A program made the position numbers and the translations under genes. From IMG/VR virus record IMGVR_UViG_3300006930_000006: DNA of 64,000 bases. One strand, written 5' to 3'. The notes beneath the pieces are model-generated. The model ran no database searches. It saw only the letters and a program-made list of their open reading frames with translations, and had not been told where the DNA came from. Position 1 is the stretch's first letter; every line of letters starts with the position of its first letter. Below, piece after piece: positions 4,793 through 61,744 of the stretch. Origin of the DNA: an uncultured virus (IMG/VR IMGVR_UViG_3300006930_000006). Taxonomy: Duplodnaviria; Heunggongvirae; Uroviricota; Caudoviricetes.

Positions 4793-5359
4793 CTATTTAT
4801 AAAACAAATGGTCCCCAATCTGACTAATCAAAGTATAGTCTTTAGACCATTTTGGTTTTACATAATCAGCGTGATAAAACAAAGCATTTGATTGAGATCC
4901 TGTCTTGAGCATATATTCTGCTACTTTCATACATTGTTTAATTAGTTCTGGATCCTTCATATCTTCTTTAATACCATCGCACTTATAAGAAAACTGGCAT
5001 TTATTCAGAACCATTTCCCCGTATTCATCTGTTTCCCCCTGTTTAATAACTCCACAGATAGTATTTGGAAAGTTCTTATTATTCTTTCTATTCATAATAA
5101 CTGAAGCAACTGCCATCTTACCAGCAGTACTTTGATTTCCTGCTTCATAATAGATTGCCTCGGTTAGACAAAGTAATTCAGATCTATCATACTTCGGCAT
5201 TACTACTGAAGCTTCTGCTCTATGTATGATTTTATCAGATAAATTACTAGTTAACTTTAATGATGGTGAAATCAAGTAATCGTTCACCGGTTTAATATAG
5301 CTTAGCACCGTAATAATAGCTATAAAAACAAAAATCCTCCAGAGTGTAAATAGTCTCAT
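4793..5359 (-). CDS. Cell wall hydrolase (SleB/Hydrolase_2) with N-terminal membrane anchor
   Basis: CLTEAIYYEA, VASVIMNR, FPNTICGVI, CQFSY, ALFYHADYVKPKW, IGDHLFY; late promoter at 5393-5400. Confidence 0.92.
   Translation of the reverse strand: MRLFTLWRIFVFIAIITVLSYIKPVNDYLISPSLKLTSNLSDKIIHRAEASVVMPKYDRSELLCLTEAIYYEAGNQSTAGKMAVASVIMNRKNNKNFPNTICGVIKQGETDEYGEMVLNKCQFSYKCDGIKEDMKDPELIKQCMKVAEYMLKTGSQSNALFYHADYVKPKWSKDYTLISQIGDHLFYK
4794..4801 (-). promoter_or_regulatory. T4-type late promoter for hsp20
   Basis: TATAAATA immediately 5' of the structured leader. Confidence 0.6.
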
Positions 5360-5405
5360 CGGCTATTCCTTATTCTGTTTATCCTTACAACGTATTTATA
5401 AAAAT

Positions 5406-5441
5406 ACCGGCATAGACCGAAAGGATTAAATCTATGCCGGT
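5406..5441 (-). terminator. Stem-loop, probable terminator after the GapR-like gene
   Basis: ACCGGCATAGA...TCTATGCCGGT inverted repeat followed by a T-rich run on the minus strand. Confidence 0.65.
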
Positions 5442-5446
5442 TAGTA

Positions 5447-5674
5447 TTAGATACCCAACTCTTTCAAGTAAGTATCTAATAAACTATCTAGATTCTCTCT
5501 ATCTTCTGGTTTCATAGAACGAATCTTAAGTGCTTGTTTCATAACCTTTTTATCAAATCCCTTGGATTCTGCTTCTTTGAAAATATCATTGATATCTGAG
5601 CGAATAGACTTTGCTTGTTCTGATAAAGATTCTATACGTTCAAAATATGATTTTAATAAGTTTTGGTCTTCCAT
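5447..5674 (-). CDS. gapR: GapR / DUF2312 (T4 DsbA-like) DNA-binding protein
   Basis: LKSYFERIESL..., DIFKEAESKGFDKKVMKQ, LLDTYLKELG pattern. Confidence 0.85.
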   Translation of the reverse strand: MEDQNLLKSYFERIESLSEQAKSIRSDINDIFKEAESKGFDKKVMKQALKIRSMKPEDRENLDSLLDTYLKELGI

Positions 5675-7635: not shown

Positions 7636-8472
7636 CTAAAAGTTCTGTAAATCTTCCAATAGTTTAACCATACCATTTGCCATAAAATACTCCATTAGAG
7701 TAGTTCTATTGCCTTTGGCTGGTTTACCATATTCTTCCATAATAGATAAACTAATGTCCGCAGGTATGCAAGACAAATCAATAAGTTTTTGATTTCTCTT
7801 AAAGTTTGCTTCTAAGTTATTGGTTTTACACCAGTTTTCTAATTGTTCTATACTTTCAATAGAAGCAAGAAACTTTGCTGTAATGGACTTTTGACGTTCC
7901 TTTATAATGAATACATTGTCGGAACTAAGTATATTTGGAATACCATCTGAGCTATCCCCTTTGATAATATGTTCTATTAGAAAAGCTTTTGGATTATCAA
8001 TTTTAATGAATTCTGAAGTTAACGGTGCATATTGTTTTACATTAGGTCCAAGCAACTGCCCAAAGTCTTTATCATTAGAAACTATAATGTGCTTACCGAA
8101 AGTAGTAGAAAGTGTTCCAATAATATCATCACCTTCTGCGGTTTCTACTTCTATAACCTTGTACGGGGACTTTTCTTTGAGAGCCAGTTTGATACTGTCC
8201 GACACACTAAATAAATAATTCCAATCCATACCAGAATCTTCACGACTTTTTTGCCTGTTGGCTTTATAATACTCATATACGCTCTTTCTCCAGTTCTTTT
8301 TACTATCACAACAAATAACAATTTCACCATATTCTTCGGACGAAAACTTCATTTTGATATTACGGATAGTATTAAAAACTATATGTGGTATCAAGTCTGG
8401 AGTGATTTCCGGTGTTCTGGCTGTAGCATAAGCTGTGCTATGAAATATCTGACTATAATCTACTAAAATCAT
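7636..8472 (-). CDS. rnh: T4-type RNase H (5'-3' flap exonuclease)
   Basis: ILVDYSQI, NWRK..Y.YYKANR, EGDDIIG, SNDKDF.QL, GDSSDGIPN, RNQKLIDL. Confidence 0.95.
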   Translation of the reverse strand: MILVDYSQIFHSTAYATARTPEITPDLIPHIVFNTIRNIKMKFSSEEYGEIVICCDSKKNWRKSVYEYYKANRQKSREDSGMDWNYLFSVSDSIKLALKEKSPYKVIEVETAEGDDIIGTLSTTFGKHIIVSNDKDFGQLLGPNVKQYAPLTSEFIKIDNPKAFLIEHIIKGDSSDGIPNILSSDNVFIIKERQKSITAKFLASIESIEQLENWCKTNNLEANFKRNQKLIDLSCIPADISLSIMEEYGKPAKGNRTTLMEYFMANGMVKLLEDLQNF

Positions 8473-8813
8473 TGATGGTTTCCTTTTTGTTTAATAGGGA
8501 CCAGTATCACTACCGGTCCCCGACTCAGGAGGGAGCCTGAATTAGTTTCTTTCTCTCTTAAAATCTTTTTTAATAAATTCCTGAATTGTATATACTGAAA
8601 AGTATAATGTATCAGGAACCACTTTATTGGATAATGTAATCCAATAACTATCTTGGTATATGTTATAGTTGATAACTACATATTCCATATTAGTTTTTCT
8701 TAAACGATTAAAGAACTTAGTTGGCATCTTGTTCAATATAAGATTTAGATGTTCTTTATTCTTAATTTCTGTTCTTGTTGTCATTGTAGTCTCCCTCTTT
8801 GTTGTTATGATAT

Positions 8814-24315: not shown

Positions 24316-25389
24316 CTACTCATCTTTTTCCCCCAGTAAATACTTATTACTAATTACCTTGAAGGATTCTGCCCCAGTCATTGACTTAAAGACAACTCCT
24401 TCTTGTAAAACCATTTTGCCGTTATCAGGTCTTTTGAATTCCCCCTCGGCAAACTTCATAGTTTCTTCAAAACTGGTTAGCATATTATCAAGTCTTAAGT
24501 TATTGTCAACTTCAAACTTATCTGCATTAATATAACCAATAATTGGAACGTGTTCTAATCTAAGAGTATTATCTACTTGTACATTGTTTAGATATTGCAT
24601 TACAACACCTCTTTCTAATGGATTTAAGTATTCAAATCTATCAATATCAAAGATATTATATACATAGAAAGCTAATTCATAAAGTCCTTCTGGATTGCTT
24701 TGAATACCAGGACCACATAGTTCACCTTGTAAAGCTATGTTCTTTCCATAAGCACGAAGACGCTCTATAATACCATACTTCTTTACTGGGTAGCCATACT
24801 TGCCGGAATCTTCTGGATTGTACTTTAGTTCTATGTTCCTTGAGCATAAACCAAACTCACCATCTTTCAAATAATATGTAGCAGAAGAACCGTCCATCTT
24901 ACGTGTAATTTCATAAGCATCTAACTTATTGATTTTACTATATAAATTCTGCAATCTTTCACAATCTGAGCGTCTAAGAAAGCTAGGGAATAAGCTCTTT
25001 GCATTTTCTTGACCACTGATTTTAATGTATGGCTCATATAAACTAACACCAAGTTGCTCGGCCAGATCCTTAGTATAATCTAATTCTGGAAACTGATTTA
25101 CTGGTAAAGCTAATCCTTGTGAGATCTGTCCTTTTAGTTTAATTGTTTTAAGTCTATGACCACGAATACCATTGTTGAGTTTAATACCAGCTTTCATAAT
25201 AAAAGCAAATCTTGGTTCTGTCTCTGGTAGAAAAGAATCTATCTCAAAGTATAGACAATCATCCCCAACTTTGAAATCATCTTTATTAACTACGCAATAC
25301 CATTGTTCGACCTTGGCTTTTACAATTCTGTCTGCTCCTGGAATTGGTTCCAGAGCATCAATTTTACGCAAAGAAACTAATTGTCTCAT
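24316..25389 (-). CDS. ATP-dependent RNA ligase (DRB0094/Rnl5-like)
   Basis: N-terminal IPGADRI/YFEIDS/GQISQGL domain; KMDGSS, LQGELCG, EGVVFK, FKVISNKYLL. Confidence 0.9.
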   Translation of the reverse strand: MRQLVSLRKIDALEPIPGADRIVKAKVEQWYCVVNKDDFKVGDDCLYFEIDSFLPETEPRFAFIMKAGIKLNNGIRGHRLKTIKLKGQISQGLALPVNQFPELDYTKDLAEQLGVSLYEPYIKISGQENAKSLFPSFLRRSDCERLQNLYSKINKLDAYEITRKMDGSSATYYLKDGEFGLCSRNIELKYNPEDSGKYGYPVKKYGIIERLRAYGKNIALQGELCGPGIQSNPEGLYELAFYVYNIFDIDRFEYLNPLERGVVMQYLNNVQVDNTLRLEHVPIIGYINADKFEVDNNLRLDNMLTSFEETMKFAEGEFKRPDNGKMVLQEGVVFKSMTGAESFKVISNKYLLGEKDE

Positions 25390-33554: not shown

Positions 33555-33630
33555 TGGAGCCCTCTGCAAGCTTTGCACTCGCGACCGATGGTTTACAAAA
33601 CCATTGCTCTACTAACTGAGCTAAGAGGGC
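33555..33630 (-). tRNA. tRNA-Thr(TGT) with atypical T-loop
   Basis: GCCCTCT acceptor, ATGGT-TTTGTAA-ACCAT anticodon arm, T-loop TGCAAAG, CCA. Confidence 0.9.
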
Positions 33631-33641
33631 ACATAAAAAAT

Positions 33642-33717
33642 TGGTAGCGGGTGTCAGATGTGCGCTGACGATCTTTTGGTTATGAGCCAAACGAGATAAC
33701 TACTTCTCCAACCCGCG
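33642..33717 (-). tRNA. tRNA-fMet(CAT) with atypical T-loop
   Basis: C1:A72 mismatch (CGCGGGT...ACCCGCT-ACCA), TTTGG-CTCATAA-CCAAA, T-loop CGCACAT. Confidence 0.85.
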
Positions 33718-33737
33718 ACAGTAATCATATTTATATT

Positions 33738-33815
33738 TGGTGGATGCTGTAAGATTCGAACTTACGACAACACCGTTATGAGCGGTGCGTTCTAACCGGG
33801 CTGAACTAAACATCC
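33738..33815 (-). tRNA. tRNA-CAT (Ile2 more likely than elongator Met)
   Basis: GGATGTT acceptor, CACCG-CTCATAA-CGGTG, canonical TTCGAAT, CCA. Confidence 0.88.
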
Positions 33816-33933
33816 ACAATTTTAGGGGATCCTGTTAGGTTAGTCTAAAGGATCCCCACACCATTTGATTGCAGTATCTGTCTGCAAAAACATATATAAC
33901 ATACTTGTTCTAGTTTGTCAACAACTTTTTTAA

Positions 33934-35553
33934 TTATATTGACATATTTTCTATATCTGCCGGTGTATCACTTGGTTTAGTAATAATAGTAACTTGAGTT
34001 GTTAGTACCAAGCTTGCTACAGAAGCAGCATTTTCCAAAGCAGTTCTTACAACTTTGGTTGGATCTATAATACCATTTTCTACTAGGTTAATAATATCCG
34101 TATTATCTGATGATACATTATATCCTAAAGCATTATCATTCTTTGCTAAAAGCACTTTAAGTAAATAAGTATCCTCTAGTCCAGCATTGATTAAAATCTG
34201 TCTAAATGGTTCTTTTAATGCTTTTCTAACAATATCAACACCTACTCTAAAATCTTCAGTTGAGTTTTCAATCACTAGTATTAAGTTCTCAGATGCATAT
34301 AATAAAGCAGTTCCACCACCAGGGACAATACCTTCTTCAACAGCAGCTCTGGTTGCGTGTAAAGCGTCGTCAACACGGTCTTTTCTTTCTTTAACTTCAA
34401 CTTCGGTAGCACCACCAACTCTAATGATAGCAACTCCACCTAACAGTTTTGCTAAGCGTTCTTGCAATTTCTCTTTTTCAAAGTCGGACTTGGATTCTGC
34501 GATCTGATTTTTGAGTAAATTACATCTAGATTCTACCTCTGTTCCATTACCACCAATAATAACAGTGTTTTCTTTATCTACTCTAATCTTATCACATTGT
34601 CCTAATTGTTCTACTGTGGTCTTTTCTAATGTCATACCGGATCCATCAGCAATCATAGTTCCACCAGTTAGAATAGCGATATCTTCAAGTATAGCTTTTC
34701 TATTGTCGCCGAAACTAGGTGCCTTTGCTACACAGATCTTTAATCCGTTCTTAATCTTATTCAGAACCAATGTTCCAATTACAGAGTTATCAATATCTTG
34801 GCAGATTACCATAAGAGGTCTGCCGGTCTTGATAATACCTTCTAATAGTGGTAATAAGCACTGGACACTGTCAATTCTTTTATCAGTTGCAAGAATATAT
34901 GGTTTATCTAATTCACAAGTCATTTTATCTACATTAGAAGAAAAGTAAGGTGATACCATTCCTTTATTGAATTGCATACCTTCAACAACTTCCATTTCAG
35001 TTTCTAATGATTTTGCTTCTTCTACTGTAATAACACCATACTCACCAACTTTGCTCATAGCCTCGGCAAGAATATCACCAATTTCTTTTTCACCATTGGC
35101 TGAGATAGTTCCTACTTGTGAGATCTCTTCTTTAGAACTAATTTTCTTACTACGTTTTTCTAATTCTTCCTTAACGTGTGCAACAGCTGACTCAATACCT
35201 TTCTTAATACCCATTGGTTTATAACCAGCACTAATAGCTTTTAGACCTTCCTTAATGATAGCATAACCTAATACGGTAGCAGTAGTAGTTCCGTCACCAG
35301 CAATATCATTGGTTTTGCTTGCAACTGATTTTAATAGTTGAGCACCAAGATTTTCAAAACGATTTTCTAATTCTATTTCTTTTGCAACAGATACACCATC
35401 TTTGGTAATTCTTGGAGCACCATAGGTCTGTTCTATTACGACATTACGTCCCTTTGGTCCAAGTGTTGCTTTTACGGCATCTGATAAAACTGTAATACCT
35501 TTATATAAGCTTTCTCTAGATGCGTCATTAAATTGTAGTTCTTTTATTTTCAT
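33934..35553 (-). CDS. groEL: Chaperonin GroEL (alphaproteobacterial type)
   Basis: TLGPKGRNV, ITKDGVSVA, GDGTTTATVL, QVGTISANG, KERKDRVDDALHATRAAVEEGIVPGGG; late promoter at 35620-35627. Confidence 0.98.
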   Translation of the reverse strand: MKIKELQFNDASRESLYKGITVLSDAVKATLGPKGRNVVIEQTYGAPRITKDGVSVAKEIELENRFENLGAQLLKSVASKTNDIAGDGTTTATVLGYAIIKEGLKAISAGYKPMGIKKGIESAVAHVKEELEKRSKKISSKEEISQVGTISANGEKEIGDILAEAMSKVGEYGVITVEEAKSLETEMEVVEGMQFNKGMVSPYFSSNVDKMTCELDKPYILATDKRIDSVQCLLPLLEGIIKTGRPLMVICQDIDNSVIGTLVLNKIKNGLKICVAKAPSFGDNRKAILEDIAILTGGTMIADGSGMTLEKTTVEQLGQCDKIRVDKENTVIIGGNGTEVESRCNLLKNQIAESKSDFEKEKLQERLAKLLGGVAIIRVGGATEVEVKERKDRVDDALHATRAAVEEGIVPGGGTALLYASENLILVIENSTEDFRVGVDIVRKALKEPFRQILINAGLEDTYLLKVLLAKNDNALGYNVSSDNTDIINLVENGIIDPTKVVRTALENAASVASLVLTTQVTIITKPSDTPADIENMSI

Positions 35554-35799: not shown

Positions 35800-37605
35800 T
35801 TAATCATTGTTTACCTCTAGTTTGTATGTATCCCGCATAACGAATTCAGTTGCTTTGCCTTCGTTCCAAGAAGCAACTGGGGTCAAATAACCAACTACAC
35901 GACTATATACTTCGGTATCTTTTCCACAATCTGGACATTTTTCTACTTTACCTTTTATATAACCGTGGTTTCTACAGATTGAAAATGTAGGTGTAATACT
36001 CAAGTATGGCAAGGAGTACTTGGTAAAACACCACTTTATAAATGATGGTATAGAAGACCAATCCGTAATCTCCTCACCAACAAAAGTATGCAACACCGTT
36101 CCACCGGTATATGCAGATTGTAATTCATTTTGATTTTCTAGAACCTGATAGATATCTTTACCACAGTTTACTGGCACTTGAGATGAGTTAGTATAGAATA
36201 GAACCAAGTCTTGTGTTCCATCATTGATACCAGTAGCAAAGTGTGCATTGGGTAATTCTCTATCCTTATTGGCTAATCTATATGAAGTTGACTCGGCAGG
36301 AGTTGCTTCAAGATTGTAATTGGTTCCAGTTTCTTCTTGAAATTCTAAGCACTTATTACGCATAAAGGCAAGAATCTCTAATGCTAGTTTCTTTCCCTCT
36401 TCGGTTGTAATATCAGATCTGCTAGGTAAAAAGTTAAGTAAGCATTCGTTCATACCAACCAATCCGATAGTTGAAAAGTGATTAGCAAAGTAAAAACCAG
36501 ACTTTTTCTTAATGTTCCGTAGATAAAATTGACTATACGGGTATAACCCGTTATCAGCTAACTCTTCAATTACTTTACGTTTTAGTTCTAAACTTTCTTT
36601 TGCAGTATCCATTACTTCTGCTAGCATAGTAAATAATTGTTCTTTGTTCTCGGCTTTATAACCAATCCTTGGTAGATTAATAGTTACTACACCAATGGAT
36701 CCGGTCAATGGTTTTGCACCGAATAAACCACCGTTGGAGTGATTTAACTTAGTAAGGTCAAGCCGGAGCCGGCAGCACATACTTAAAGCATCGTCTGCAG
36801 ATACAGAAGAATTGATATAATTAGCAAAGTAAGGTATACCGTACTTGGCAGTAATTCTCCATAGATCTTCCAATACTGGATTGTTCCAGTCAAAATCCTT
36901 GGTTATGTTGATAGTTGGTATAGGGAAAGTAAATACTCTACCATTGGCATCTCCTTCTGACAATACATCAAAAAGTGCCTTATTAAATGTATTCATTTCT
37001 TCTTGGTAATCAGCATAGGTATCTTCTAAGAATTCCCCACCGATTATAACTTGCTCGGTTTTCATAGAATTAGGTACCGTCAGATCCAGTGTGATATTGA
37101 AGAAAGGTGTTTGAAATCCAACACGAGTGCTCATATTCATCTGATAAACGAAGTTCTGTAGTTCTTGTCTTACTTGTTTATAAGACAAATTATCTGCTCT
37201 GATATATGGAGCTAGATAAGTATCAAAGTTACTTAGTGCTTGAGCACCAGAAGCTTCCCCCTGTAAAGTAAAGATAAAAGCTACTATTTGTCCTAATGCA
37301 GAACTAAAGTGTTTTGGTGGTTTTGCACATACTTTATAAGATACACCAGTAAATCCACAAGATAGAATATCATATAGATTCCATCCCATACAATAGCAGC
37401 TTAAAAGTCCTAAGTCGTGGATATGCATTTCTCCATTGTCATAAGCTTTCTTTATTCTATCTGTATATACTTTATCTAACCAGTATCTTTTTGAGTCTTC
37501 AGAAGATAGATAGTTATTAAGACCTTGTAATGAATAACCCATATTAGAGTTTTCTTTAACCTGCCAGTCTTTTCTTTTAAGGTATTTCTCAACTAATTCA
37601 GACAC
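35800..37605 (-). CDS. nrdD: Class III anaerobic ribonucleoside-triphosphate reductase
   Basis: HIHDL, FTFPIPT, SMCCRL, EATPAES, YTGGTVLH, CxxH/CxxC, YSRVVGY glycyl radical loop. Confidence 0.96.
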   Translation of the reverse strand: MSELVEKYLKRKDWQVKENSNMGYSLQGLNNYLSSEDSKRYWLDKVYTDRIKKAYDNGEMHIHDLGLLSCYCMGWNLYDILSCGFTGVSYKVCAKPPKHFSSALGQIVAFIFTLQGEASGAQALSNFDTYLAPYIRADNLSYKQVRQELQNFVYQMNMSTRVGFQTPFFNITLDLTVPNSMKTEQVIIGGEFLEDTYADYQEEMNTFNKALFDVLSEGDANGRVFTFPIPTINITKDFDWNNPVLEDLWRITAKYGIPYFANYINSSVSADDALSMCCRLRLDLTKLNHSNGGLFGAKPLTGSIGVVTINLPRIGYKAENKEQLFTMLAEVMDTAKESLELKRKVIEELADNGLYPYSQFYLRNIKKKSGFYFANHFSTIGLVGMNECLLNFLPSRSDITTEEGKKLALEILAFMRNKCLEFQEETGTNYNLEATPAESTSYRLANKDRELPNAHFATGINDGTQDLVLFYTNSSQVPVNCGKDIYQVLENQNELQSAYTGGTVLHTFVGEEITDWSSIPSFIKWCFTKYSLPYLSITPTFSICRNHGYIKGKVEKCPDCGKDTEVYSRVVGYLTPVASWNEGKATEFVMRDTYKLEVNND

Positions 37606-50764: not shown

Positions 50765-51772
50765 TTAGATTGTCTCCGCTTCTTGGTATATGTTAGTTAC
50801 TAATTTCTTTATAACGATTTTATCCAAAACCGTTTCACTTGCATCTATTACTTCTTTGATATATTGTAAAGTATCTACATTGTCAACATTTATTTCAACT
50901 TTTTCTAAAGAATTATCTGCATCGGATTCTATAACCGTAAGTTCCAACGGATTTTCATTATTTACATCAACTAACCATTTATCAAACTGTAATTGGTCAC
51001 GTTCAAACTTGGCATAAACTTTAACAATCTTATTCTTTACTGATACTGGTTCCATACCTTCTTCGTAAAAGATCTTACAGAATAATCTATGCTTATTCTC
51101 TACAAATTCTGCATTTTCTGTTTTAGTATCAAAGACATAGAATCCTTTTTTGGTTTGATAATCAGACCAAGTAATCTCATAAGGGGATCCAATATAATTC
51201 TTTCCGTGTAAATGATAATGTCCAGAATAGATCTGTCCGTATTTGGTAAGAATAGTATCTGACATACCAATTTCGGATTTTACTCCTGGACTGTATTCAT
51301 ATCCTTTTAACTCAAAGTGCCCGAATACAATCTTGGATTTAGATTGTTGAATAAAATCAATAGCATTCTGTTCGTTTATAATCCAAGGAATAAAGTCTAC
51401 TGGTAGGTCATCAAACTCTTTTGTGATAGGTTTATCTATTACATTAATGTTCTTATATAGATCCAAGATTTCTTTTAGGCTTGATACCACATTGGTATTC
51501 TTAAAATAGATATCGTGGTTACCCTCAATGATATCCATAGTAATTCCGTGCTTTTCTAACTTATCAAGGAATATGGTCTTTGTTTTATTTAATGTTAGAA
51601 AGTTTATATTCTTACGTTTATCAAAAAAGTCCCCGCAGTGTATTACTTGCTTGATATTATTCTTTTCTAAGTAATCAAAGAAGACCGTATAGAACTTATC
51701 AAAATAATCTAGCATACCCTGGTCGTCATTTTTAACACCAAAGTGAGTATCAGTTAGAACTGCTATCTTCAT
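50765..51772 (-). CDS. gp47: Recombination nuclease gp47 (Mre11/SbcD-like)
   Basis: TDTHFG, GDFFD, GNHD, GHFE, SGHYH; start at 51772. Confidence 0.96.
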   Translation of the reverse strand: MKIAVLTDTHFGVKNDDQGMLDYFDKFYTVFFDYLEKNNIKQVIHCGDFFDKRKNINFLTLNKTKTIFLDKLEKHGITMDIIEGNHDIYFKNTNVVSSLKEILDLYKNINVIDKPITKEFDDLPVDFIPWIINEQNAIDFIQQSKSKIVFGHFELKGYEYSPGVKSEIGMSDTILTKYGQIYSGHYHLHGKNYIGSPYEITWSDYQTKKGFYVFDTKTENAEFVENKHRLFCKIFYEEGMEPVSVKNKIVKVYAKFERDQLQFDKWLVDVNNENPLELTVIESDADNSLEKVEINVDNVDTLQYIKEVIDASETVLDKIVIKKLVTNIYQEAETI

Positions 51773-52274
51773 TGGATACCTCTTTTTTATCATTAGTCTC
51801 AATATAATTCTTGATAAACTCAACACAATCAAGGTTTATCTTTTTATAGTCATCGTGGTCTGATATGGTTACTAGACCGGATAAGAATTCGTTATCCTTC
51901 ATACACTCAACTTGGATATATCTTTGCTTCTTTTCTTTTTGAATATACCGAATAAAGGCATAGATGGCAATCTGAGTAAAGTAACTAAATGGTTCTTTAG
52001 ATTTGTTCGGGTCAAAGTTATTTACATATCTGATACATTGTTCTATGGCATAACCAATCATATCTTCGTTATAAGTATATCCACGAAACTTCCATAGTTT
52101 ACCTAGATTGGTGCAAATTAGAAGAATAGCCTTACCAATAGACTCTGGTACTCTTGGTAGTTCTTCATTTTTTTCTTTAGCTTCAAGCATCTTTTTATGG
52201 TAAATAACAAACTGTTGGTAGACTTTTTCTTTATCAAGGTAATTTCTACTTGTATCTTTTGGTGGTTTATTCAT
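51750..52274 (-). CDS. gp55: Late sigma factor gp55
   Basis: FRGYTYNEDMI, NFDPNKS..PFSYFTQI..YAFIR.IQKEKKQ. Confidence 0.96.
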   Translation of the reverse strand: MNKPPKDTSRNYLDKEKVYQQFVIYHKKMLEAKEKNEELPRVPESIGKAILLICTNLGKLWKFRGYTYNEDMIGYAIEQCIRYVNNFDPNKSKEPFSYFTQIAIYAFIRYIQKEKKQRYIQVECMKDNEFLSGLVTISDHDDYKKINLDCVEFIKNYIETNDKKEVSNEDSSSN

Positions 52275-53712
52275 TATCTGGCACTCTAATCTTCTTTATG
52301 TTATAATTATGTTTCTCTTCTGCATACATTTTAATACGTTCTATAAGGTGTTTCAAAGAAAAGTTCTTTCGTTTCGGTGTTCCTAAGTCGTCTGCGATAT
52401 CATATAAAGTTGCTACCTTGTCTTGATACTTTCTTAAAACACGTCCGATGCTTTGTAATACTTTAACACGGCTTTTATAAAAAGAGGCAAAGATAACATT
52501 GTGTAGATTCTTGATATTGATACCTTGCGAGAAAGTACCATAAGAAGCAACCAATATAACATCTTTATTCTTTTCCATATAAGCACGAATCTCTTCTCTT
52601 GGATCCACGTCTATTCCCCCGTCTATATAAAACACTTTGCGATCTGTATGTTCTTTTAATAAGTCATAAATTATCTTACCGTGTTCTATTCTAGTAAACA
52701 GTAATAAAGTATTTCCTTGTAATTGTAAAGCTAGATTTTTAATAAACTTGTTTCTTTGTTGATGTTGTAAAATATAGGTCATCTCTTCTTGATAATCCAT
52801 ATCTTGGACTAACTTACGATCCTTAGCAGGATATTCTAACAATAAGATATTGATATTTAATTTAGAAAGTATGTTATTGTCAATAGCATCTCTGGTCTTG
52901 GTAACTACTTTAATCGGTCCCATTAGTCCTTCTAATACCAACTGGTGTACATTACCTTTTTCTATATCTTTTAAAGTACCAGTAGTTCCAACACGAATAT
53001 ATGCACCTTCAAGATTCTCAAGTATTTTCTTGATGGACTTGGCATCTGCTCCGTGTGCTTCATCACAAACTACAGCCTGGAAGTCTTGAAAGTATTCTTT
53101 GGGTAATCTAAGTAAGGATTGATAAGTACTAATTGTAATAGATTTATCTGTTTCTTTCTCTTGTCCGGAGTAGATTTGATGTATATCTTTACCAATGGAA
53201 GGATCGTAGTCTATAAAGTCCTTGGTCATTTGTGATACTAATTGCACGGAAGGAACTATAATAAGTGTCTTTAGTTTGAATAACTTAACTATAAGATATA
53301 TAATCAATGACTTACCGGTGCCGGTTGGGGATACCAAAACTGCACGATGTTTATTAGCAACGTGATTAAGGGCATCTAATTGAAAATCGTATGGAGTTTT
53401 CTGTAGTTGTAGATTCTTTATGAAGTCATCGGTACTGATTGGATCTGGTTTAGAAAAGCCTTTGAAAGTAATTGGATAATCGTGTTCTTTGGCAAAAGCA
53501 TATAAATGATGTATTAGACCGGTGTATAGTTTACCTGTCTGAGCATTGAAAAGACGGATCTTACCGTCCCAGATTTTGTTCTTGAATAAAGGTGACCATC
53601 TAGCTGTTGGTGTAAAAAATGAAAAGTAATCTGATACTTCCATTATTACACAACGTTCTTCTATGGCTAACTTTGCCCAGACTTCATCTATTTTAGTTAC
53701 TGTTATCATCAA
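52267..53712 (-). CDS. uvsW: RNA-DNA/DNA-DNA helicase UvsW
   Basis: WDGKIRLF, SPTGTGKS, DEAH, TGT, GINIKNLHN, QSIGRVLR. Confidence 0.96.
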   Translation of the reverse strand: MMITVTKIDEVWAKLAIEERCVIMEVSDYFSFFTPTARWSPLFKNKIWDGKIRLFNAQTGKLYTGLIHHLYAFAKEHDYPITFKGFSKPDPISTDDFIKNLQLQKTPYDFQLDALNHVANKHRAVLVSPTGTGKSLIIYLIVKLFKLKTLIIVPSVQLVSQMTKDFIDYDPSIGKDIHQIYSGQEKETDKSITISTYQSLLRLPKEYFQDFQAVVCDEAHGADAKSIKKILENLEGAYIRVGTTGTLKDIEKGNVHQLVLEGLMGPIKVVTKTRDAIDNNILSKLNINILLLEYPAKDRKLVQDMDYQEEMTYILQHQQRNKFIKNLALQLQGNTLLLFTRIEHGKIIYDLLKEHTDRKVFYIDGGIDVDPREEIRAYMEKNKDVILVASYGTFSQGINIKNLHNVIFASFYKSRVKVLQSIGRVLRKYQDKVATLYDIADDLGTPKRKNFSLKHLIERIKMYAEEKHNYNIKKIRVPDNE

Positions 53713-53751: not shown

Positions 53752-54192
53752 TTAGTTAACTCCATTAGTAAACTTTTGCCATTCAATCATCTTGGAGATC
53801 TGAAAACCTCTGTTCTGTATATGCTTAAGAATAGCTTCTGTACATTCTACTTTTTCTTTCTGTAAACCAAGAGCCAACTGTTCCTTGGATACCAGACTAT
53901 CTGCATTAAGATAAAGATCTGCATCTTGTCTTAAGACTTTGATATCCTGTGGTTCTTTTCTGTAATCTTCTACCGAACCTTGACCAAGATAGTATTGTCT
54001 TCTCTGTAAAAGCAATTTGTTATAACTATTTTGCATTTTAAGCAAAACTAGTTTCTCTGTACTGTGTATTTTTAGAAACTTAAGAAAGAGATCCGTGTTT
54101 TTCTTGGACTCCAATCCTAGGTCTTCTGATATTCTAAGTTCTTTCTCTGCTAAACTCTGAATATCTTCTAATTTCATTGATTCTAAAGCCAT
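53752..54192 (-). CDS. uvsY: Recombination mediator UvsY
   Basis: YYLG, YLNAD, NRGFQI..MIEW.KF..G; synteny. Confidence 0.9.
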   Translation of the reverse strand: MALESMKLEDIQSLAEKELRISEDLGLESKKNTDLFLKFLKIHSTEKLVLLKMQNSYNKLLLQRRQYYLGQGSVEDYRKEPQDIKVLRQDADLYLNADSLVSKEQLALGLQKEKVECTEAILKHIQNRGFQISKMIEWQKFTNGVN

Positions 54193-54270: not shown

Positions 54271-54741
54271 ATGAATAAGAATTACTTGAGTCCAAATGGA
54301 TTTAGACTGCATATTAATCATATTCCTGAAGTAAAGTTTATGATACAGTCTATCTCTCTACCAGCCTTGAAGGTAACTGGAATTGATATACAGAACTTTG
54401 GAGCATTTGGAATGAAAGCTCCAGGAGATAACTTTGACTTAGCGGACTTGACAGTTACTTTTATTGCAGATGAAGACTTGAAGACTTATGAAAGTATAAA
54501 ACTATGGATGGAAAACTGTGTATCAAGTAATAATAAATTGCAGATGAGATCTGATGCTCAACTTATTATTGAAACTAATGCTAAGAATCCTAACTTTGTA
54601 ATAACATTTACTAATCTATTTCCAACTTCTTTATCTGAATTGAAACTATCGTCGACTCTTTCTCCTGAAGAACCGATCATATTTACTTCTACTTTTGCTC
54701 TTACTGATAAGTTCTATATTGAAAGAAAAACTGTTGAATAG
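54271..54741 (+). CDS. gp3: Tail completion / sheath stabiliser (gp3-like, tail tube fold)
   Basis: NYLSPNGF, PGD, LTVTFIADEDL..Y..I..W, SDA.L, LFPTSLS; late promoter at 54213-54220. Confidence 0.85.
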   Translation: MNKNYLSPNGFRLHINHIPEVKFMIQSISLPALKVTGIDIQNFGAFGMKAPGDNFDLADLTVTFIADEDLKTYESIKLWMENCVSSNNKLQMRSDAQLIIETNAKNPNFVITFTNLFPTSLSELKLSSTLSPEEPIIFTSTFALTDKFYIERKTVE

Positions 54742-54899
54742 AATCATTGAAGATAAATATATTCATTTGAAGATTCTATTGAAGATAAGTCGATTTGAAT
54801 TTTCGATTTTGAATACTTTTTTGGAGAAAAAAAGGATAGATTTCAGGCCTTTTGATTTTTATCTAAATTATCAATACAAATTAATTTTGATTCATTAAA

Positions 54900-55205
54900 T
54901 TGTATTTTAATTTATTATATTGTATATTTAAGTCTTTGGCTTTCGCCAATCTTTAAATTGTATATTGTTGTTCAAATATAGTTTATATTATTTATTATCT
55001 ATTTGGCTTTCGCCATTTTATTGAATATATTATATATCATTTATTGATCGATTCAGTTTCTCACTCTTTCGCTTCGCACTCTCTCTTTTCGTTCTCTTCA
55101 TTGATCAATTCTTTGATCGTCTAATAGTCCAAATAGTATTCTGGTAATACCCAGAATTTGATTTTTTATTCTTTTTTTTAAAAATTGATGATTTTTGTTT
55201 GATTT
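54900..55205. other. Putative replication origin / DNA unwinding element
   Basis: ORF-free, very AT-rich, strongly strand-skewed; repeated TTGGCTTTCGCCA; GCTTCGC; three TGATC sites; near the gene-orientation switch. Confidence 0.45.
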
Positions 55206-55206
55206 T

Positions 55207-55860
55207 GTTGCGGTTATTCTTAAATTATCAGGTTCGTTGTTTTAACGGTGAAACTCTGTGCCGTTATCTGATATACAAATAGTTAGCATATTTTATCCTT
55301 TGATATGCTAAACAGTCTCGGTCAGTTATAAGAAATTTAAGAATTATGAGTATTCTTATAACCTATGTGGTTGCTATCCTTGCAGATGCCACAATCTTTT
55401 TTTGGAATCTCCATCCCCTTGGTATAATGCCCTTTGACTTTGTAAAGTACTTTTGGATAAATACTTTTACATAACTACGACACATTATTGAATAATACCA
55501 TTGACATTTACCGCTTCACTAAACCTATGTTGAATCCAATGTACATAAGTCTAGATCCACAGTAAGACCAGTCCTACTAATGGAGATACTTTTGATTTCA
55601 CATAGACTTCAACTCTTCAATTCTTGCTATGCGCTATAGAACTTGGACCGTTTGTCCAATGCTTCTGGGGGCTGACTCCCAAAAATAGTACTTTCGCACC
55701 AATCTATAGTATCCCGCAACGACCAGGCCTTTATGGACAGCTATTTATGCGTTCGCCGCCTTAGACGGTACGCAGTGCCTACATATTGCTCCTACTGCTG
55801 CGGATGCCTTTCCGGAAAAGGACTTTTTATTCGTGGTTCCGGTATGTCTTAAAACTTAAT
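55207..55860 (-). ncRNA. Large structured non-coding RNA (about 650 nt), family unassigned
   Basis: No ORF of 60 aa or more; more than 12 helices, many with G-U pairs only on the minus strand; GAAA tetraloop; long-range closing helix; dedicated promoters upstream. Confidence 0.75.
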
Positions 55861-55865
55861 ACTTA

Positions 55866-55951
55866 TATTTATACATATCATATAATCACTATTTAATCAT
55901 AAGTCAAGTCTTTTTTACAATTATTTTTAATCATACTTGAGCGTATTTATA
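55866..55951 (-). promoter_or_regulatory. Tandem early and late promoters driving the ncRNA
   Basis: TTGACT (55902-55907), 17 bp, TATATG (55879-55884); TATAAATA at 55866-55873 and 55944-55951. Confidence 0.75.
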
Positions 55952-56072
55952 CAAGTTGAAGTGCTTTTTCGGGGTACTTTCGAAAATAAATATTCTTCTT
56001 TAATAAAATCAAATAGTTAAGACGAAAGCCCCTTGGTTTCAGTGATAATATATATTAAATTATAGATTAAGC

Positions 56073-56106
56073 TTGACAATCTAAACGATAATATATATTA
56101 TAAATA
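56073..56106 (+). promoter_or_regulatory. Overlapping early-type and late promoters for the lysozyme operon
   Basis: TTGACA-17 bp-TATTAT and TATAAATA at 56099-56106. Confidence 0.7.
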
Positions 56107-56124
56107 CGGGCATAGAGGTAAAAG

Positions 56125-56580
56125 ATGAAAATATCAGATATTGGTCTAAAACTAATAAAACACTATGAGGGATTCTATCCTTCTACTTATCTTTGTCCAG
56201 CAAGAGTACCAACTATTGGTTATGGAACTACTCGTATCGGTGGTAAACCTATTCCAACCGGTATGGTAATTACAGAGCAGAAAGCATCTGGTTATCTAAT
56301 GGAAGAAGTTAATATGATTGAAAAACAATTAGTTAGCTGTATAAAAACTAGTTTATCACAAAACCAGTGGGATGCTATCTATTCTTTTGTTTATAACCTC
56401 GGAATAACCAATTTTTCAAAGAGTACATTATTAAAGTGTATTAACAAGAATAACTTTACACAAGCATCTACAGAGTTTCTTAAATGGAATAAAGCTGCTG
56501 GTAAAGAATTAAAAGGCTTGACAAATCGTAGAAGATCTGAAAGTATACTATTCTCAAGCAATAAACTAGAATTATTTTAG
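56125..56580 (+). CDS. Endolysin, GH24 lysozyme
   Basis: IKHYEG, YLCPA.VPTIGYGTT, SFVYNLG, STLLK, GLTNRR.SE. Confidence 0.95.
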   Translation: MKISDIGLKLIKHYEGFYPSTYLCPARVPTIGYGTTRIGGKPIPTGMVITEQKASGYLMEEVNMIEKQLVSCIKTSLSQNQWDAIYSFVYNLGITNFSKSTLLKCINKNNFTQASTEFLKWNKAAGKELKGLTNRRRSESILFSSNKLELF

Positions 56581-56589
56581 GAGTATAAA

Positions 56590-57163
56590 ATGTATAAAGT
56601 AAAATTAATAAATGAAGATAGTAATTTTAATAAATGGTTAGATACATTTATTGATGAAAAAGGTATTAATACAGATGAATCTTTCACAGTTGAAGGTAAA
56701 TCAGGAACCAATTTTATGACTATTGAAACTGTTATAGAAGCTATGAAAGCAACTTCAAGTGCAGAGCAAGGCCGTATTAAAGATATGCTAGTTAAGCTTG
56801 ATTTTCAAAATCAAAAAATAACACCATATCTAAAACACTTGGCACAAGCTATAGCACGATAAAGGTGATACAATGAAATTCGTGGTAAAAGAAGGCTTTA
56901 GAGTGCATTATGAAGAAACTGTCAATTTTTATTATGACTTACTTAAAGACTACTTAAAAAATGATACCTTTGTTTCTTCTCATCTTGCATTTGACCAAGG
57001 CACTTTAGAAGATATAATGACTGGGGTTGGACGTAATTATGATTTAGAAGAACTTTCCAATATGATTAGTTTTCTAAGATTTAAAGATCTTTCTTCTGAA
57101 AAGTATTATAATGCAATTCTTAAGAATAATAAGATAGAATCTATAGAACAAATTGATAGATAA
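56590..57163 (+). other. Two small genes with capsid-targeting-like leaders (56590..56862, 56873..57163)
   Basis: MYKVKLINED and MKFVVKEG starts, under the late promoter. Confidence 0.5.
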
Positions 57164-57791
57164 CGGGGGAATAATGGAGGACATAGTATATTTAATTGGT
57201 GGTGGTCCAAGTTTATCAACAGTTAATCTTAACTTATTAATGGATAAGGATATTGCCACAACCAATAATGCTTATAAACTATTCAAGAAGACGGTGCTTA
57301 GCCACTTCTCGGACTTTGTCTGGTGGACTTGGCATTATGAAAATCCAAAGTTTAAAGACCACGTTTTAGAAAATTACTGGACTTGCTCTGCACCTTATAA
57401 CGGTAATATCGGAGTTCCTTATAATGTTGAAATGTGGAGGAATTCTGGTGGTATTGAATATCAACATAAAGCTGGTGCTTATGGTCTTTATATGGAAACA
57501 AATAGAGTTGGTGGAGATAATGCTGGTCTTCAAGCACTTAATGTACTTATAAAAATGGGATATAAGAAGATTGCTTTAGTTGGTTTTGATATGAAACCAA
57601 CCAATGGTCATAATAACTGGCACGATGAGCATAAACGTTTTACTAATCCAGTTCGTTATTCACAGGTAATGATACCAAATTGGATAAATACGAAAAAAGA
57701 TATTGACAATCTAGGAATACAAGTTTATAACTGCAACCGAGACAGTGCCTTAACTTGTTTTGAGTATAGGGACTTAGAAACACTTATATAG
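57153..57791 (+). CDS. DUF115/MptE/Maf-like (GT42-related Rossmann) protein
   Basis: IGGGPSL, NNAY, DFVWW, NAG..ALN, GYKKIALVGFDM, WHDEH, VYNC..SAL.CF. Confidence 0.65.
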   Translation: MIDNGGIMEDIVYLIGGGPSLSTVNLNLLMDKDIATTNNAYKLFKKTVLSHFSDFVWWTWHYENPKFKDHVLENYWTCSAPYNGNIGVPYNVEMWRNSGGIEYQHKAGAYGLYMETNRVGGDNAGLQALNVLIKMGYKKIALVGFDMKPTNGHNNWHDEHKRFTNPVRYSQVMIPNWINTKKDIDNLGIQVYNCNRDSALTCFEYRDLETLI

Positions 57792-57802
57792 AAAGTTATA
57801 TT

Positions 57803-58756
57803 ATGCAAAAGTATTTACTAACACACTATGACCTAGACGGTATCGTGTGTCAAATGCTAGCTACTGAAGTTTACGGTAGATTTGATATGTCAAAAGCTAT
57901 GGGTCTTGTCAAACTAGATGGTGTTATAGAACAATTTTGTACACTAAAAACAAAAGAGACCGAGATCGTAATTACAGATCTTTGCCTTAGTAAAGACCAG
58001 CTTATTAAGATCTTTAAAGTGTTTGATAAGATTTACTTATATGACCATCATCAGAATTCAGAAGATTTCTATAAAAAATACTTAACCGCAAAGACACAAA
58101 AGTTCTTTATGAGCTGGAATAAAGATAAATGTGGTGCTAAGATTTTCTATGATGACCATATAGATACTTTTCCAAGTCTTATAAAATATGAGTCTCTAGT
58201 TAAGTATACCAATATCTTTGACCTATGGAAAAAAGATGATAGTGAAGATTGGGAAAACGCTGACGGACTAAACACATTATTCTGGAAGTATCACTCAAGA
58301 GACTTTATGAAAAGATTCTCAAATGGATTTAATGGTTTTAATGTTGACGAACAAGATTATATCATTGATTACAGCATCAAAGTTAAGCATTGTATTGAAA
58401 AACAAACAGAATACGCAGATGTAGGTAAAACTGGACTTATTTCAATATCTGATAACGTAGAAATACCTATTATGAATTATGTGCCGTATTATAAGCAAGG
58501 TTATAGATATTATTATTTTGTAAATAGGCCAACTGGTGAGTATTATAGCATCTCTATTAGAAGCAGACAAGAAAAAGTAAACTTGGGTAAACGTATTGAA
58601 TACTTAAAGGCAACGTATCCAGATATTATTCAATCCAGTGGTGGACACAGTGAAGCTTGTGGAATTACATTTATAAATAAAAATGTAAGTATAGATACAG
58701 TTCTTAAAACAATAGAACAAGTTTCAACACAGTTGGAGAGTGAAGATAATGCTTGA
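57803..58756 (+). CDS. DHH/DHHA1 phosphoesterase
   Basis: THYDLDG, ITDL, DHH, SIRS, GGHSEACG. Confidence 0.85.
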   Translation: MQKYLLTHYDLDGIVCQMLATEVYGRFDMSKAMGLVKLDGVIEQFCTLKTKETEIVITDLCLSKDQLIKIFKVFDKIYLYDHHQNSEDFYKKYLTAKTQKFFMSWNKDKCGAKIFYDDHIDTFPSLIKYESLVKYTNIFDLWKKDDSEDWENADGLNTLFWKYHSRDFMKRFSNGFNGFNVDEQDYIIDYSIKVKHCIEKQTEYADVGKTGLISISDNVEIPIMNYVPYYKQGYRYYYFVNRPTGEYYSISIRSRQEKVNLGKRIEYLKATYPDIIQSSGGHSEACGITFINKNVSIDTVLKTIEQVSTQLESEDNA

Positions 58757-59000
58757 TATAAACGATGCTGATTTTATTACCAGACAGGTAATAGATAAGT
58801 CCACAGACGATATTATGGAAATTATCAATAAAAAACACACAACTTATATAGAAGCTGTACTAATCTATGCTCAAGAAAACAATATGGATCTTGAAGTACT
58901 TAAAGATAACTTATCAGATGGTATTAAGAGTAAACTAGAATCTGAAGCTATTGATTTAAGACTATTAAAGAAACCAACAACATTTAGGTTTGATGTATGA
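58740..59000 (+). CDS. gp33: Late transcription coactivator gp33
   Basis: TYIEAVL.YAQEN.MD.E, IKSKLESEAIDLRLLK; synteny with gp59. Confidence 0.8.
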   Translation: MKIMLDINDADFITRQVIDKSTDDIMEIINKKHTTYIEAVLIYAQENNMDLEVLKDNLSDGIKSKLESEAIDLRLLKKPTTFRFDV

Positions 59001-59644
59001 TAAATCTTCCACAAATAACCAAACCAGTTATTATAATTGGTGGTGGTCCGTCATTAAAAGAAATTGATGTTAGTAAAATAGATACTGATAAGTATTTTAT
59101 AATGGGATTGAACTTTGCATATAAACTAATGCACTGTGACCATATACACTTCTCAGATCTTCCGTTTTACATTATGGCAGCAAGAGATCTTGTAAAATTA
59201 GAAAATACTACACTTAGTTCTACTGGTCATTTAGACTGGGAAGATATGCATATTGCTTATGGATATTGGGATAAAGCTGGGGTAAAGTACTATATGAACT
59301 TAACTCGTGACGAAGGAATAGATATGGATCCAGCACACGAAGATTATATCTGTGGTAATAACTCCGGTCACCAAGCAATTAATGTCGCTGCTAGATTAGG
59401 TGCAAAAGAGATTTACTTACTTGGATATGATATGAGTACCGGTAAGAATAACGAATCCGAGTGGCATAATGAAGCACCTTGTGAAAAATCGGCAATGGAT
59501 GTGCAGATAGAACGCTGGTTAAGAAAGTTTAGAACCACAGTAGAACCATTAGAAAAAGCAGGCATTAAAGTTTATAACTGCAATCCAGAAAGTGCTTTAG
59601 ATTGCTTTCCAAAAATAGGACCAGATATATTATATAGAAAGTGA
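58997..59644 (+). CDS. DUF115/MptE/Maf-like protein (paralogue of 57153..57791)
   Basis: IGGGPSL, NSGHQAINVA, GAKEIYLLGYDM, WHNE, VYNCNPESALDCF. Confidence 0.65.
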   Translation: MINLPQITKPVIIIGGGPSLKEIDVSKIDTDKYFIMGLNFAYKLMHCDHIHFSDLPFYIMAARDLVKLENTTLSSTGHLDWEDMHIAYGYWDKAGVKYYMNLTRDEGIDMDPAHEDYICGNNSGHQAINVAARLGAKEIYLLGYDMSTGKNNESEWHNEAPCEKSAMDVQIERWLRKFRTTVEPLEKAGIKVYNCNPESALDCFPKIGPDILYRK

Positions 59645-61474: not shown

Positions 61475-61744
61475 ATGATTAGACCGCATAAGAATAAAGT
61501 TTTAGTAAAATCTGCTATACAAGGTGAAGAGTTTAAGACCGAAGGAGGTATTATACTTGATAGCCCGAAAGACCAGATGTCAGAACGTGTTATTAAAGGA
61601 ACAGTAGAATCTATTGGTCCAGAGTGTAAGACTATTTTTGTTGGTGAAAATGTTATATTAGAACGTAAAACATTGATTGCTTTAACAGAAGATAGTATTA
61701 AGTATTATATCGTCAATGAAGATGATATTTTAGCAAGTTATTAA
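61475..61744 (+). CDS. groES: Co-chaperonin GroES
   Basis: IRP..NKVLV, KTEGGIIL, GTVESIGP, VGE.V, IVNEDDILA. Confidence 0.88.
   Translation: MIRPHKNKVLVKSAIQGEEFKTEGGIILDSPKDQMSERVIKGTVESIGPECKTIFVGENVILERKTLIALTEDSIKYYIVNEDDILASY

Follow-up and report, generated by a model that had tools for sequence, protein, structure and literature searches.

A candidate orphan structured RNA gene in the non-coding island of an uncultured T4-like phage

The stretch of DNA analysed here, 64,000 nucleotides (nt) in length (IMG/VR record IMGVR_UViG_3300006930_000006; hereafter, the window), belongs to an uncultured, AT-rich T4-like myovirus with a mean GC content of 0.318. Between the genes for a gp3/gp19-like tail protein and an endolysin lies a gap that we regard as a real, clearly delimited non-coding island and a credible candidate for an orphan non-coding RNA (ncRNA). 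We tentatively propose, at a little under an even chance, that it holds a stand-alone gene for a structured ncRNA on the minus strand, transcribed late and acting in trans. A first-pass annotation, made from the letters alone, had proposed either a new large phage ncRNA or a structured replication primer. The first of these proposals is supported by the lack of coding capacity, a GC maximum, excess folding specific to the minus strand, late-promoter motifs in a phage that encodes late transcription machinery, and the lack of any match to an Rfam family; it is held back by its reliance on a single sequence.

Coding capacity, composition and folding

The interval 54899-56121 (1223 nt) is the sole stretch of at least 350 nt in the window without a stop-to-stop frame of at least 60 amino acids (aa), which confirms the earlier description of it as the only long stretch free of open reading frames (ORFs). 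In 108,318 nt of phage DNA, obtained by joining the window to G001 (hereafter, the 108 kb), gaps of at least 250 nt occur only here and at a tRNA cluster (33620-33933). Reading TGA, TAG or TAA as sense opened nothing longer than 129 codons on either strand, and the interval is non-coding under every stop-codon reassignment tried. Pfam searches with 29 stop-to-stop pieces returned nothing credible (sub-threshold Cys-rich noise only), and two pieces searched with tblastn had no counterpart in 50,697 phage records. For the longest piece (58 aa), HMMER returned three matches among 1.84 billion representatives. These we rejected as repeat-inflated chance: each was matched in 8-14 stretches, and the two that were fetched are tandem-repeat pseudo-proteins. 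Tandem repeats are limited to four weak short arrays.

Neither the window nor the 108 kb has a region richer in GC than the core of the interval (55600-55850); the tRNA cluster is among the regions that follow. Two 200-nt windows, at 55601 and 55651, have GC contents of 0.475 and 0.485, about 4 standard deviations above the mean (standard deviation 0.037). According to PMC8632094, high GC in a long intergenic region is the criterion by which the GC-rich intergenic region (GC-IGR) pipeline selects structured ncRNA candidates. The minus strand also carries the purine skew (G>C, A>T) that is typical of the sense strands of this phage, and this skew extends across the gap to the promoters at 55936-56001.

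We compared the predicted folding of both strands with shuffled controls, a comparison that the first-pass annotation had named as a possible refutation. Over 711 nt, the minus strand reaches -176.1 kcal/mol (z -1.91, 1 of 20 shuffles as good) and the plus strand -151.1 kcal/mol (z -1.08, 3 of 20). Three minus-strand sub-domains have z scores of -1.76, -2.29 and -2.02 (8, 2 and 5 of 200 shuffles as good); with separate dinucleotide shuffles (150 each), the sub-domains score -1.98, -2.62 and -2.19 on the minus strand and +0.26, +0.75 and -1.37 on the plus strand. The sequence was also folded in ten sliding windows of 220 nt with a step of 60 nt, so that boundaries were not chosen. The mean z is then -1.63 on the minus strand (+0.10 to -3.46) and -0.44 on the plus strand, and the five windows spanning 55390-55849 range from -1.17 to -3.46 on the minus strand and from -0.55 to +0.94 on the plus strand. 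Both strands are stable in 55150-55490, because the hairpins there are perfect palindromes. The coding background (31 windows, sense strand) has a z of -0.48 +/- 1.11; two windows, including one in the tRNA region, score -2 or lower. In these models the minus strand folds better than its controls, if modestly: the excess is real and is specific to the minus strand in 55390-55850 (z about -2, versus about 0 on the plus strand).

These properties bear on an alternative that we consider unlikely, namely that the interval is a functionless spacer or decayed relic (foreign DNA or a dead mobile element) that separates transcription units, its promoter boxes and hairpins being incidental or serving the neighbours. 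No other such gap occurs in the 108 kb, and phage genomes are compact. Decayed AT-rich phage DNA would not be expected to form the GC maximum, no protein remnant was identified by Pfam, tblastn or HMMER, and strand-specific excess folding is unexpected of junk. The modest size of the folding signal is consistent with a spacer, as are several results given below.

All of the helix strings quoted in the first-pass annotation occur on the minus strand at the positions that it gave, although not all are predicted to form. The partition function was run on a 676-nt RNA. In this ensemble, the GUUGCGG/CCGCAAC helix that was thought to close about 510 nt of an RNA of about 650 nt has a mean pair probability of 0.00. 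The same value was obtained for the enclosing AUCUCCAU/AUGGAGAU helix, which is present in the minimum free energy (MFE) structure of an isolated 236-nt piece. The 510-nt closing helix competes with a local pairing of CCGCAGC with GUUGCGG in a long irregular arm (Table 1). Local hairpins are robust, with pair probabilities of 0.83-0.99; the GGUGC-GAAA-GUACU hairpin inside the three-way junction has the value 0.99. The stem of the three-way junction has a pair probability of 0.50. The global architecture drawn in the first-pass annotation does not hold.

In each of the two strong hairpins, AGUAGGAC/GUCUUACU and CUAGACUUAUGU/ACAUAGGUUUAG, there are G-U pairs whose plus-strand counterparts are A-C mismatches, which accounts for the asymmetry in folding between the strands. 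The argument that G-U pairs fix the polarity of the RNA is supported by these mismatches.

The loops of hairpins at 55371-55381 and 55290-55300 (minus strand) show AAGGAUA and AAAGGAUAA. CsrA/RsmA bind GGA presented in a hairpin loop; by a rough estimate, the overall count of GGA is about that expected from composition.

Promoters, transcript ends and the skew minimum

Two T4-type late-promoter boxes of the form TATAAATA point into the gap on the minus strand, as had been reported in the first-pass annotation (Table 1). The upstream box is the mirror of the TATAAATACG box before the endolysin gene (inverted repeat I24). Past the two boxes there is no minus-strand ORF for about 1.7 kb. Late promoters of this form in T4-like phages are cited in PMC9004378. 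Homologues of gp55, gp33 and gp45 are all encoded by the phage, and for 10 of the 22 boxes in the window a gene or tRNA (e.g., the gp3-like protein, endolysin, gp33 and GroEL) starts on the same strand 10-67 nt downstream. By analogy with T4 late promoters, the 5' end of the RNA would lie near 55860.

The sigma-70-like site TTGACT-17-TATATG, previously described as perfect, matches the consensus at 9 of 12 positions, has a G at the invariant last position of the -10 element, and is not among the 11 sites called by a consensus sigma-70 scan (11.9 expected). Because this site is weak and uncalled, the proposed combination of early and late promoters, with expression throughout infection, is unsupported; only the late boxes are credible.

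Three terminator-like hairpins at the end of the converging gp3/gp19-like gene are oriented on the plus strand, so plus-strand transcripts of the tail gene likely end before the core is reached. Three terminator-like sites were called versus 0.6 expected, two of them in the cluster at 54936-55157 and the third at 56167-83; the hairpin at 55003-16 was read from repeat D1 and is not a terminator call. A 36-nt module is duplicated 67 nt apart at 54928-55030 (plus strand) and holds the first two terminator-like hairpins. Each copy includes a TTGGC-TTTC-GCCA(A) hairpin, which looks like a terminator when read on the plus strand and, on the minus strand, like a hairpin with a GAAA tetraloop. The 3' end of the ncRNA is probably at about 55200-55130, near this plus-strand hairpin cluster.

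We predict that a late apparatus of the gp55/gp33/gp45 type would start transcription at the proximal box, with the box at 55951-55944 as a second start, divergent from the late promoter of the endolysin. The transcript would cross the GC-enriched body, which spans about 660 nt (from 55860 to about 55200) and would adopt a fold made up of successive local hairpins, a three-way junction and one long arm. It would end at or close to the hairpins that terminate the converging tail gene as well, for a length of about 0.7 kb. The product may be a stable, trans-acting structural or regulatory RNA of the assembly and lysis phase. Transcription itself, the RNA ends, stability and function in trans are what we infer from the features above.

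The same promoters sit at the cumulative skew minimum of the genome, which is single and V-shaped over the 108 kb and coincides with the switch from minus-strand to plus-strand genes. Main-strand genes are all on the minus strand to the left of 54.2 kb and all on the plus strand to the right of 56.1 kb. From these sequence features, the minimum is a candidate replication origin or the divergence point of the genome. A distinctly improbable reading of the locus is that an origin lies at the divergent promoters (55.87-56.12 kb), and that the minus-strand transcript forms an R-loop or structured primer for leading-strand synthesis, as at T4 oriF and oriG or in the case of ColE1 RNA II. The latter, about 550 nt long, acts as a structured primer.

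The position does agree with the location of T4 origins. According to PMC3016281, the active origins oriE, oriF and oriG of T4 lie at sites of transcriptional divergence and skew shifts, and oriF, at uvsY, involves a promoter-driven R-loop that is later unwound by UvsW. Genes for UvsY, UvsW, gp59 and gp43 flank the locus here, the RNA strand is G-rich relative to C, and AT-rich inverted and direct repeats are found at 56045-56101. A skew minimum is, however, also expected from gene orientation alone. Minimal T4 origins, as described in the same source, are about 100 bp and consist of a middle promoter and an A+T-rich unwinding element (PMC3016281). Here, some 30 nt of AT-rich sequence separate the promoter from the GC-richest 250 nt of the genome, the GC maximum being reached within about 40 nt downstream of the gap promoters. 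Further, the credible promoters are of the late type and the sigma-70-like site is weak. T4 late promoters depend on ongoing replication. Finally, a comparable gap was found in 0 of 80 UvsW-anchored loci of relatives. The primer alternative of the first-pass annotation is thus in keeping with the locus by its position at the skew minimum and strand switch, but lacks an A+T-rich unwinding element after an early or middle promoter.

Searches for relatives, and the genomic setting

No homologue of the candidate was identified in any collection searched, which weighs against an RNA gene. Blastn in distant mode against 50,697 phage records and blastn against 72,556 plasmid records found nothing similar. 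Exact 17-21-mers searched in IMG/VR and JGI metagenomes recovered the same two contigs (described below) and six chance seed matches without extension. Neither nhmmer nor blastn matched anything in 80 UvsW-anchored and 80 endolysin-anchored loci, and BLAST against the whole contigs of 15 relatives gave only noise of 14-44 nt. A covariance model of part of the fold (R1; 173 nt, 57 bp), run on 16 contigs and 81 sources, matched itself and gave one 15.6-bit match (in L068), which is spurious as it lies antisense inside a 353-aa ORF. Bacterial genomes (5, then 401 and 301 of the phylum with the best GroEL match) gave matches of 21-38 nt with E about 1e-3 per genome. Thus the collection of homologues from related phages, proposed earlier as a check, came back empty. 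We attribute this to the phage lineage being nearly unsampled.

Several other results count against the proposed RNA gene. It rests on one sequence: the three other copies found are 99.99-100% identical, which leaves no covariation. A fold predicted from a single sequence does not count as evidence of functional structure, a point made in PMC8250186. The thermodynamic signal is modest and window-dependent (+0.10 to -3.46). In a composition-regressed scan the core is not an outlier (-0.3 to -2.4), and stronger spots occur elsewhere (5301-5401 and 8451). The TATAAATA box is not enriched overall in the window (22 versus 18.4 +/- 4.4 expected). None of the three terminator-like sites is on the minus strand, and because of this we can only infer the 3' end. 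The lack of enrichment of the box and the lineage-specific nature of the interval (anything similar in 0 of 80 UvsW-anchored and 0 of 80 endolysin-anchored loci) are consistent with a functionless spacer. No RNA run was found to contain the sequence: of four runs examined, two gave identical DNA contigs, and the two RNA-labelled ones yielded only one 31-nt and one 34-nt fragment of low likeness, which is no evidence either way. A search of the 108 kb for trans targets gave a longest complementarity or identity elsewhere of 15 nt (E 0.057), consistent with chance.

The strongest local folding signals of the window are at 5301-5600 and 8451-8700, on both strands, with composition-regressed z of -3 to -4. 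These spots, which probably represent bidirectional terminators, overlap short intergenic gaps; within one gap (5360-5446) there is a late-promoter box (5393-5400).

Genes in the vicinity were identified by PHROG and Pfam scans (Table 1). Other genes recognised in this way encode gp59, gp43, gp45, gp44/62, RegA, gp46/47 and gp61, along with an RnlA-like RNA ligase, NrdD, GroEL/ES and Hsp20. A paralogous pair (57153-57791 and 58997-59644, plus strand; phrog_4603, annotated as alpha-2,3-sialyltransferase) flanks genes for a DHH phosphoesterase and gp33.

Table 1. Coordinates of the candidate RNA, its predicted elements, signals and neighbouring genes
Feature	Position	Strand	Remarks
Candidate ncRNA body	55195..55860	-	GC-enriched, ORF-free, predicted fold
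Long irregular arm, CCGCAGC paired with GUUGCGG	55714..55803	-	MFE equals centroid
Three-way junction CUAUAGA/UCUAUAG with three hairpins	55634..55709	-	Stem pair probability 0.50
Two strong hairpins: AGUAGGAC/GUCUUACU; 12-bp CUAGACUUAUGU/ACAUAGGUUUAG	55519..55578	-	Pair probabilities 0.83, 0.96
3' hairpins: 11-bp GGUUAUAAGAA stem, 9-bp UUAGCAUAU stem, AACGG/CCGUU	55235..55400	-	Stable on both strands
Proximal late-promoter box TATAAATA	55873-55866	-	T4-type; points into gap
Upstream late-promoter box TATAAATA	55951-55944	-	T4-type; points into gap
Sigma-70-like site TTGACT-17-TATATG	55907-55879	-	9/12 matches, G at invariant last -10 position
Divergent endolysin promoters TTGACA-17-TATTAT (11/12) and TATAAATA	56073..56106	+	19 nt before ATG 56125
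Three terminator-like hairpins	54936-49, 55003-16, 55138-57	+	End the converging gp3/gp19-like gene
Cumulative skew minimum	GC 55936, AT 56001		Single, V-shaped over 108 kb
Gap between called genes	54742-56124		Flanked by gp3/gp19-like tail gene and endolysin
gp55 late sigma	51750-52274	-	PHROG/Pfam scans
UvsW	52267-53712	-	PHROG/Pfam scans
UvsY	53752-54192	-	PHROG/Pfam scans
gp3/gp19-fold tail protein	54271-54741	+	PHROG/Pfam scans
GH24 endolysin	56125-56580	+	PHROG/Pfam scans
gp33	58740-59000	+	PHROG/Pfam scans; 2.8 kb from candidate RNA

Sequence comparisons suggest that the phage lineage is almost unsampled. A search of 5.8 billion protein clusters found no word-sharing relative of the gp3-like protein, and for UvsW and the endolysin the closest relatives reach about 50% identity. 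Other copies of the locus DNA are found in two IMG/VR contigs, 100% and 99.99% identical over 8.4 kb, as well as in the JGI record of one of these contigs and in two Logan assemblies. The near-identical DNA (0-1 differences per 8.4 kb; L002, L003 and runs X1 and X2) is on record from one study labelled subsurface (2017) and another labelled freshwater (2025), which may not be independent. In runs X1 and X2 the phage DNA reaches a depth of about 11x.

The phage encodes GroEL (33934-35553) and a GroES-like protein (61475-61744). The 43 closest bacterial GroEL loci have 46-53% identity, and many are from Patescibacteria or from small metagenome-assembled genomes (MAGs) labelled Gammaproteobacteria; for one such "Gammaproteobacteria" MAG, the phylum sample obtained was the one also obtained for a Patescibacteria genome. 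Together with the subsurface and freshwater sources, the GroEL matches are a possible hint at the host. Also encoded on the minus strand are an NrdD-like anaerobic ribonucleotide reductase (35800-37605), which suggests an anaerobic host, and the RnlA-like RNA ligase (24316-25389).

Comparison with known RNAs and replication origins

At the gathering score, Rfam 15 identified no family in the whole window except four tRNAs. With the threshold relaxed to E<=10, the segments 54700-56200, 55380-55870 and 55100-55600 gave only chance matches far below threshold (STnc40, SNORD26, SNORA35, TUG1_4, Yfr10 and atoC). Recognisable ROOL, GOLLD and OLE RNAs, transfer-messenger RNA (tmRNA), RNase P, group I/II introns and small ribozymes are thus without a match even at E<=10. 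The Rfam scan proposed with the first-pass annotation therefore leaves the candidate outside all of the families named there. ARAGORN found three tRNAs and no tmRNA in the window. The tmRNA result is relevant in that both two-piece tmRNAs and glnA riboswitches lie beside gp33 in related aquatic T4-like phages (PMC9004378). A strict T-loop motif is on neither strand of the locus, and strict RNase P CR-I/CR-V patterns and the 11-nt receptor motif are absent from the minus strand. No split gene was found at the flanks, where the gp3/gp19-like gene and the endolysin gene are complete and on the other strand. Beside the tRNAs reported by ARAGORN, a fourth (33645-33717, minus strand; Rfam 48.2 bits) has a TATAAATA box 11 nt upstream, at 33728-33735.

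These searches bear on a further reading, which we consider very improbable: that the interval holds an unrecognised self-splicing, self-cleaving or mobile RNA (for example, a ribozyme akin to an intron), or a host RNA that was captured and has diverged beyond the reach of current models. The GC-rich, GNRA-capped, multi-helix predicted architecture would suit such an element, and T4-like phages carry group I introns, with two-piece tmRNAs and glnA riboswitches in marine lineages (PMC9004378). In opposition are the Rfam results for introns, ribozymes, tmRNA and RNase P at E<=10, the ARAGORN result, the intact flanking genes and the lack of RNase P CR-I/CR-V, T-loop and 11-nt receptor motifs on the minus strand. 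Also, the phylum that matches best by GroEL yielded only noise of 21-38 nt across 401 genomes.

Returning to a late-transcribed orphan RNA gene, it is possible, though we lean against it, that the candidate is the founding member of a new class of structured RNA, about 0.7 kb long and transcribed from late promoters of the gp55 type, in a deep-branching, almost unsampled T4-like lineage whose GroEL is closest to that of Patescibacteria, acting in trans during assembly and lysis and possibly as an RNA-only scaffold like ROOL or GOLLD. We know of no ncRNA of about 0.7 kb in T4-like phages, which are among the best-studied viruses, and the literature on phage ncRNAs that we searched yielded none of this size from T4-like phages. 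If the reading is true, a large late-expressed RNA would be added to the T4 paradigm and would be a new target for RNA structure work. If the locus marks an origin instead, replication initiation would be located in an uncultured lineage.

GOLLD and ROOL are associated with phages and prophages. The candidate is like ROOL (RF03087), GOLLD (RF01998) and OLE (RF01071) in being about 0.6-0.8 kb, ORF-free and multi-helix, with GNRA-capped hairpins. Unlike them, it has no model match at E<=10, is not beside tRNAs (the nearest is 21 kb away), and is a single sequence with no family and no covariation or multimerisation support. The likeness suggested in the first-pass annotation thus extends to size and not to any covariance-model match. 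GOLLD and ROOL also figure in PMC12286853; no function is known for these RNAs.

A second comparison is with Melnitz and pelagimyophage-like T4-like phages, in which a two-piece tmRNA and a glnA riboswitch are close to gp33 (PMC9004378). As in that case, a sizeable structured RNA (here a candidate) would be carried by an aquatic T4-like phage in a replication and late-transcription module, with gp33 2.8 kb away. It differs in that neither ARAGORN nor Rfam identified a tmRNA or riboswitch, the minus strand lacks a T-loop, and the candidate is on the strand opposite to gp33.

The locus resembles T4 oriF and oriG in that a putative promoter-driven transcript lies at a divergence and skew shift, beside uvsY and uvsW (PMC3016281). 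Those origins, in the same text, have a MotA middle promoter and an A+T-rich DNA unwinding element within about 100 bp, in contrast to the candidate late-type boxes and GC-rich body found here; no element of the MotA type was found at the locus, although no search aimed at one was made. Finally, the interval is like the GC-IGR candidates of the Breaker laboratory in being both the longest intergenic region and the highest in GC of the 108 kb (PMC8632094); those candidates, unlike this one, were accepted only after comparative analysis.

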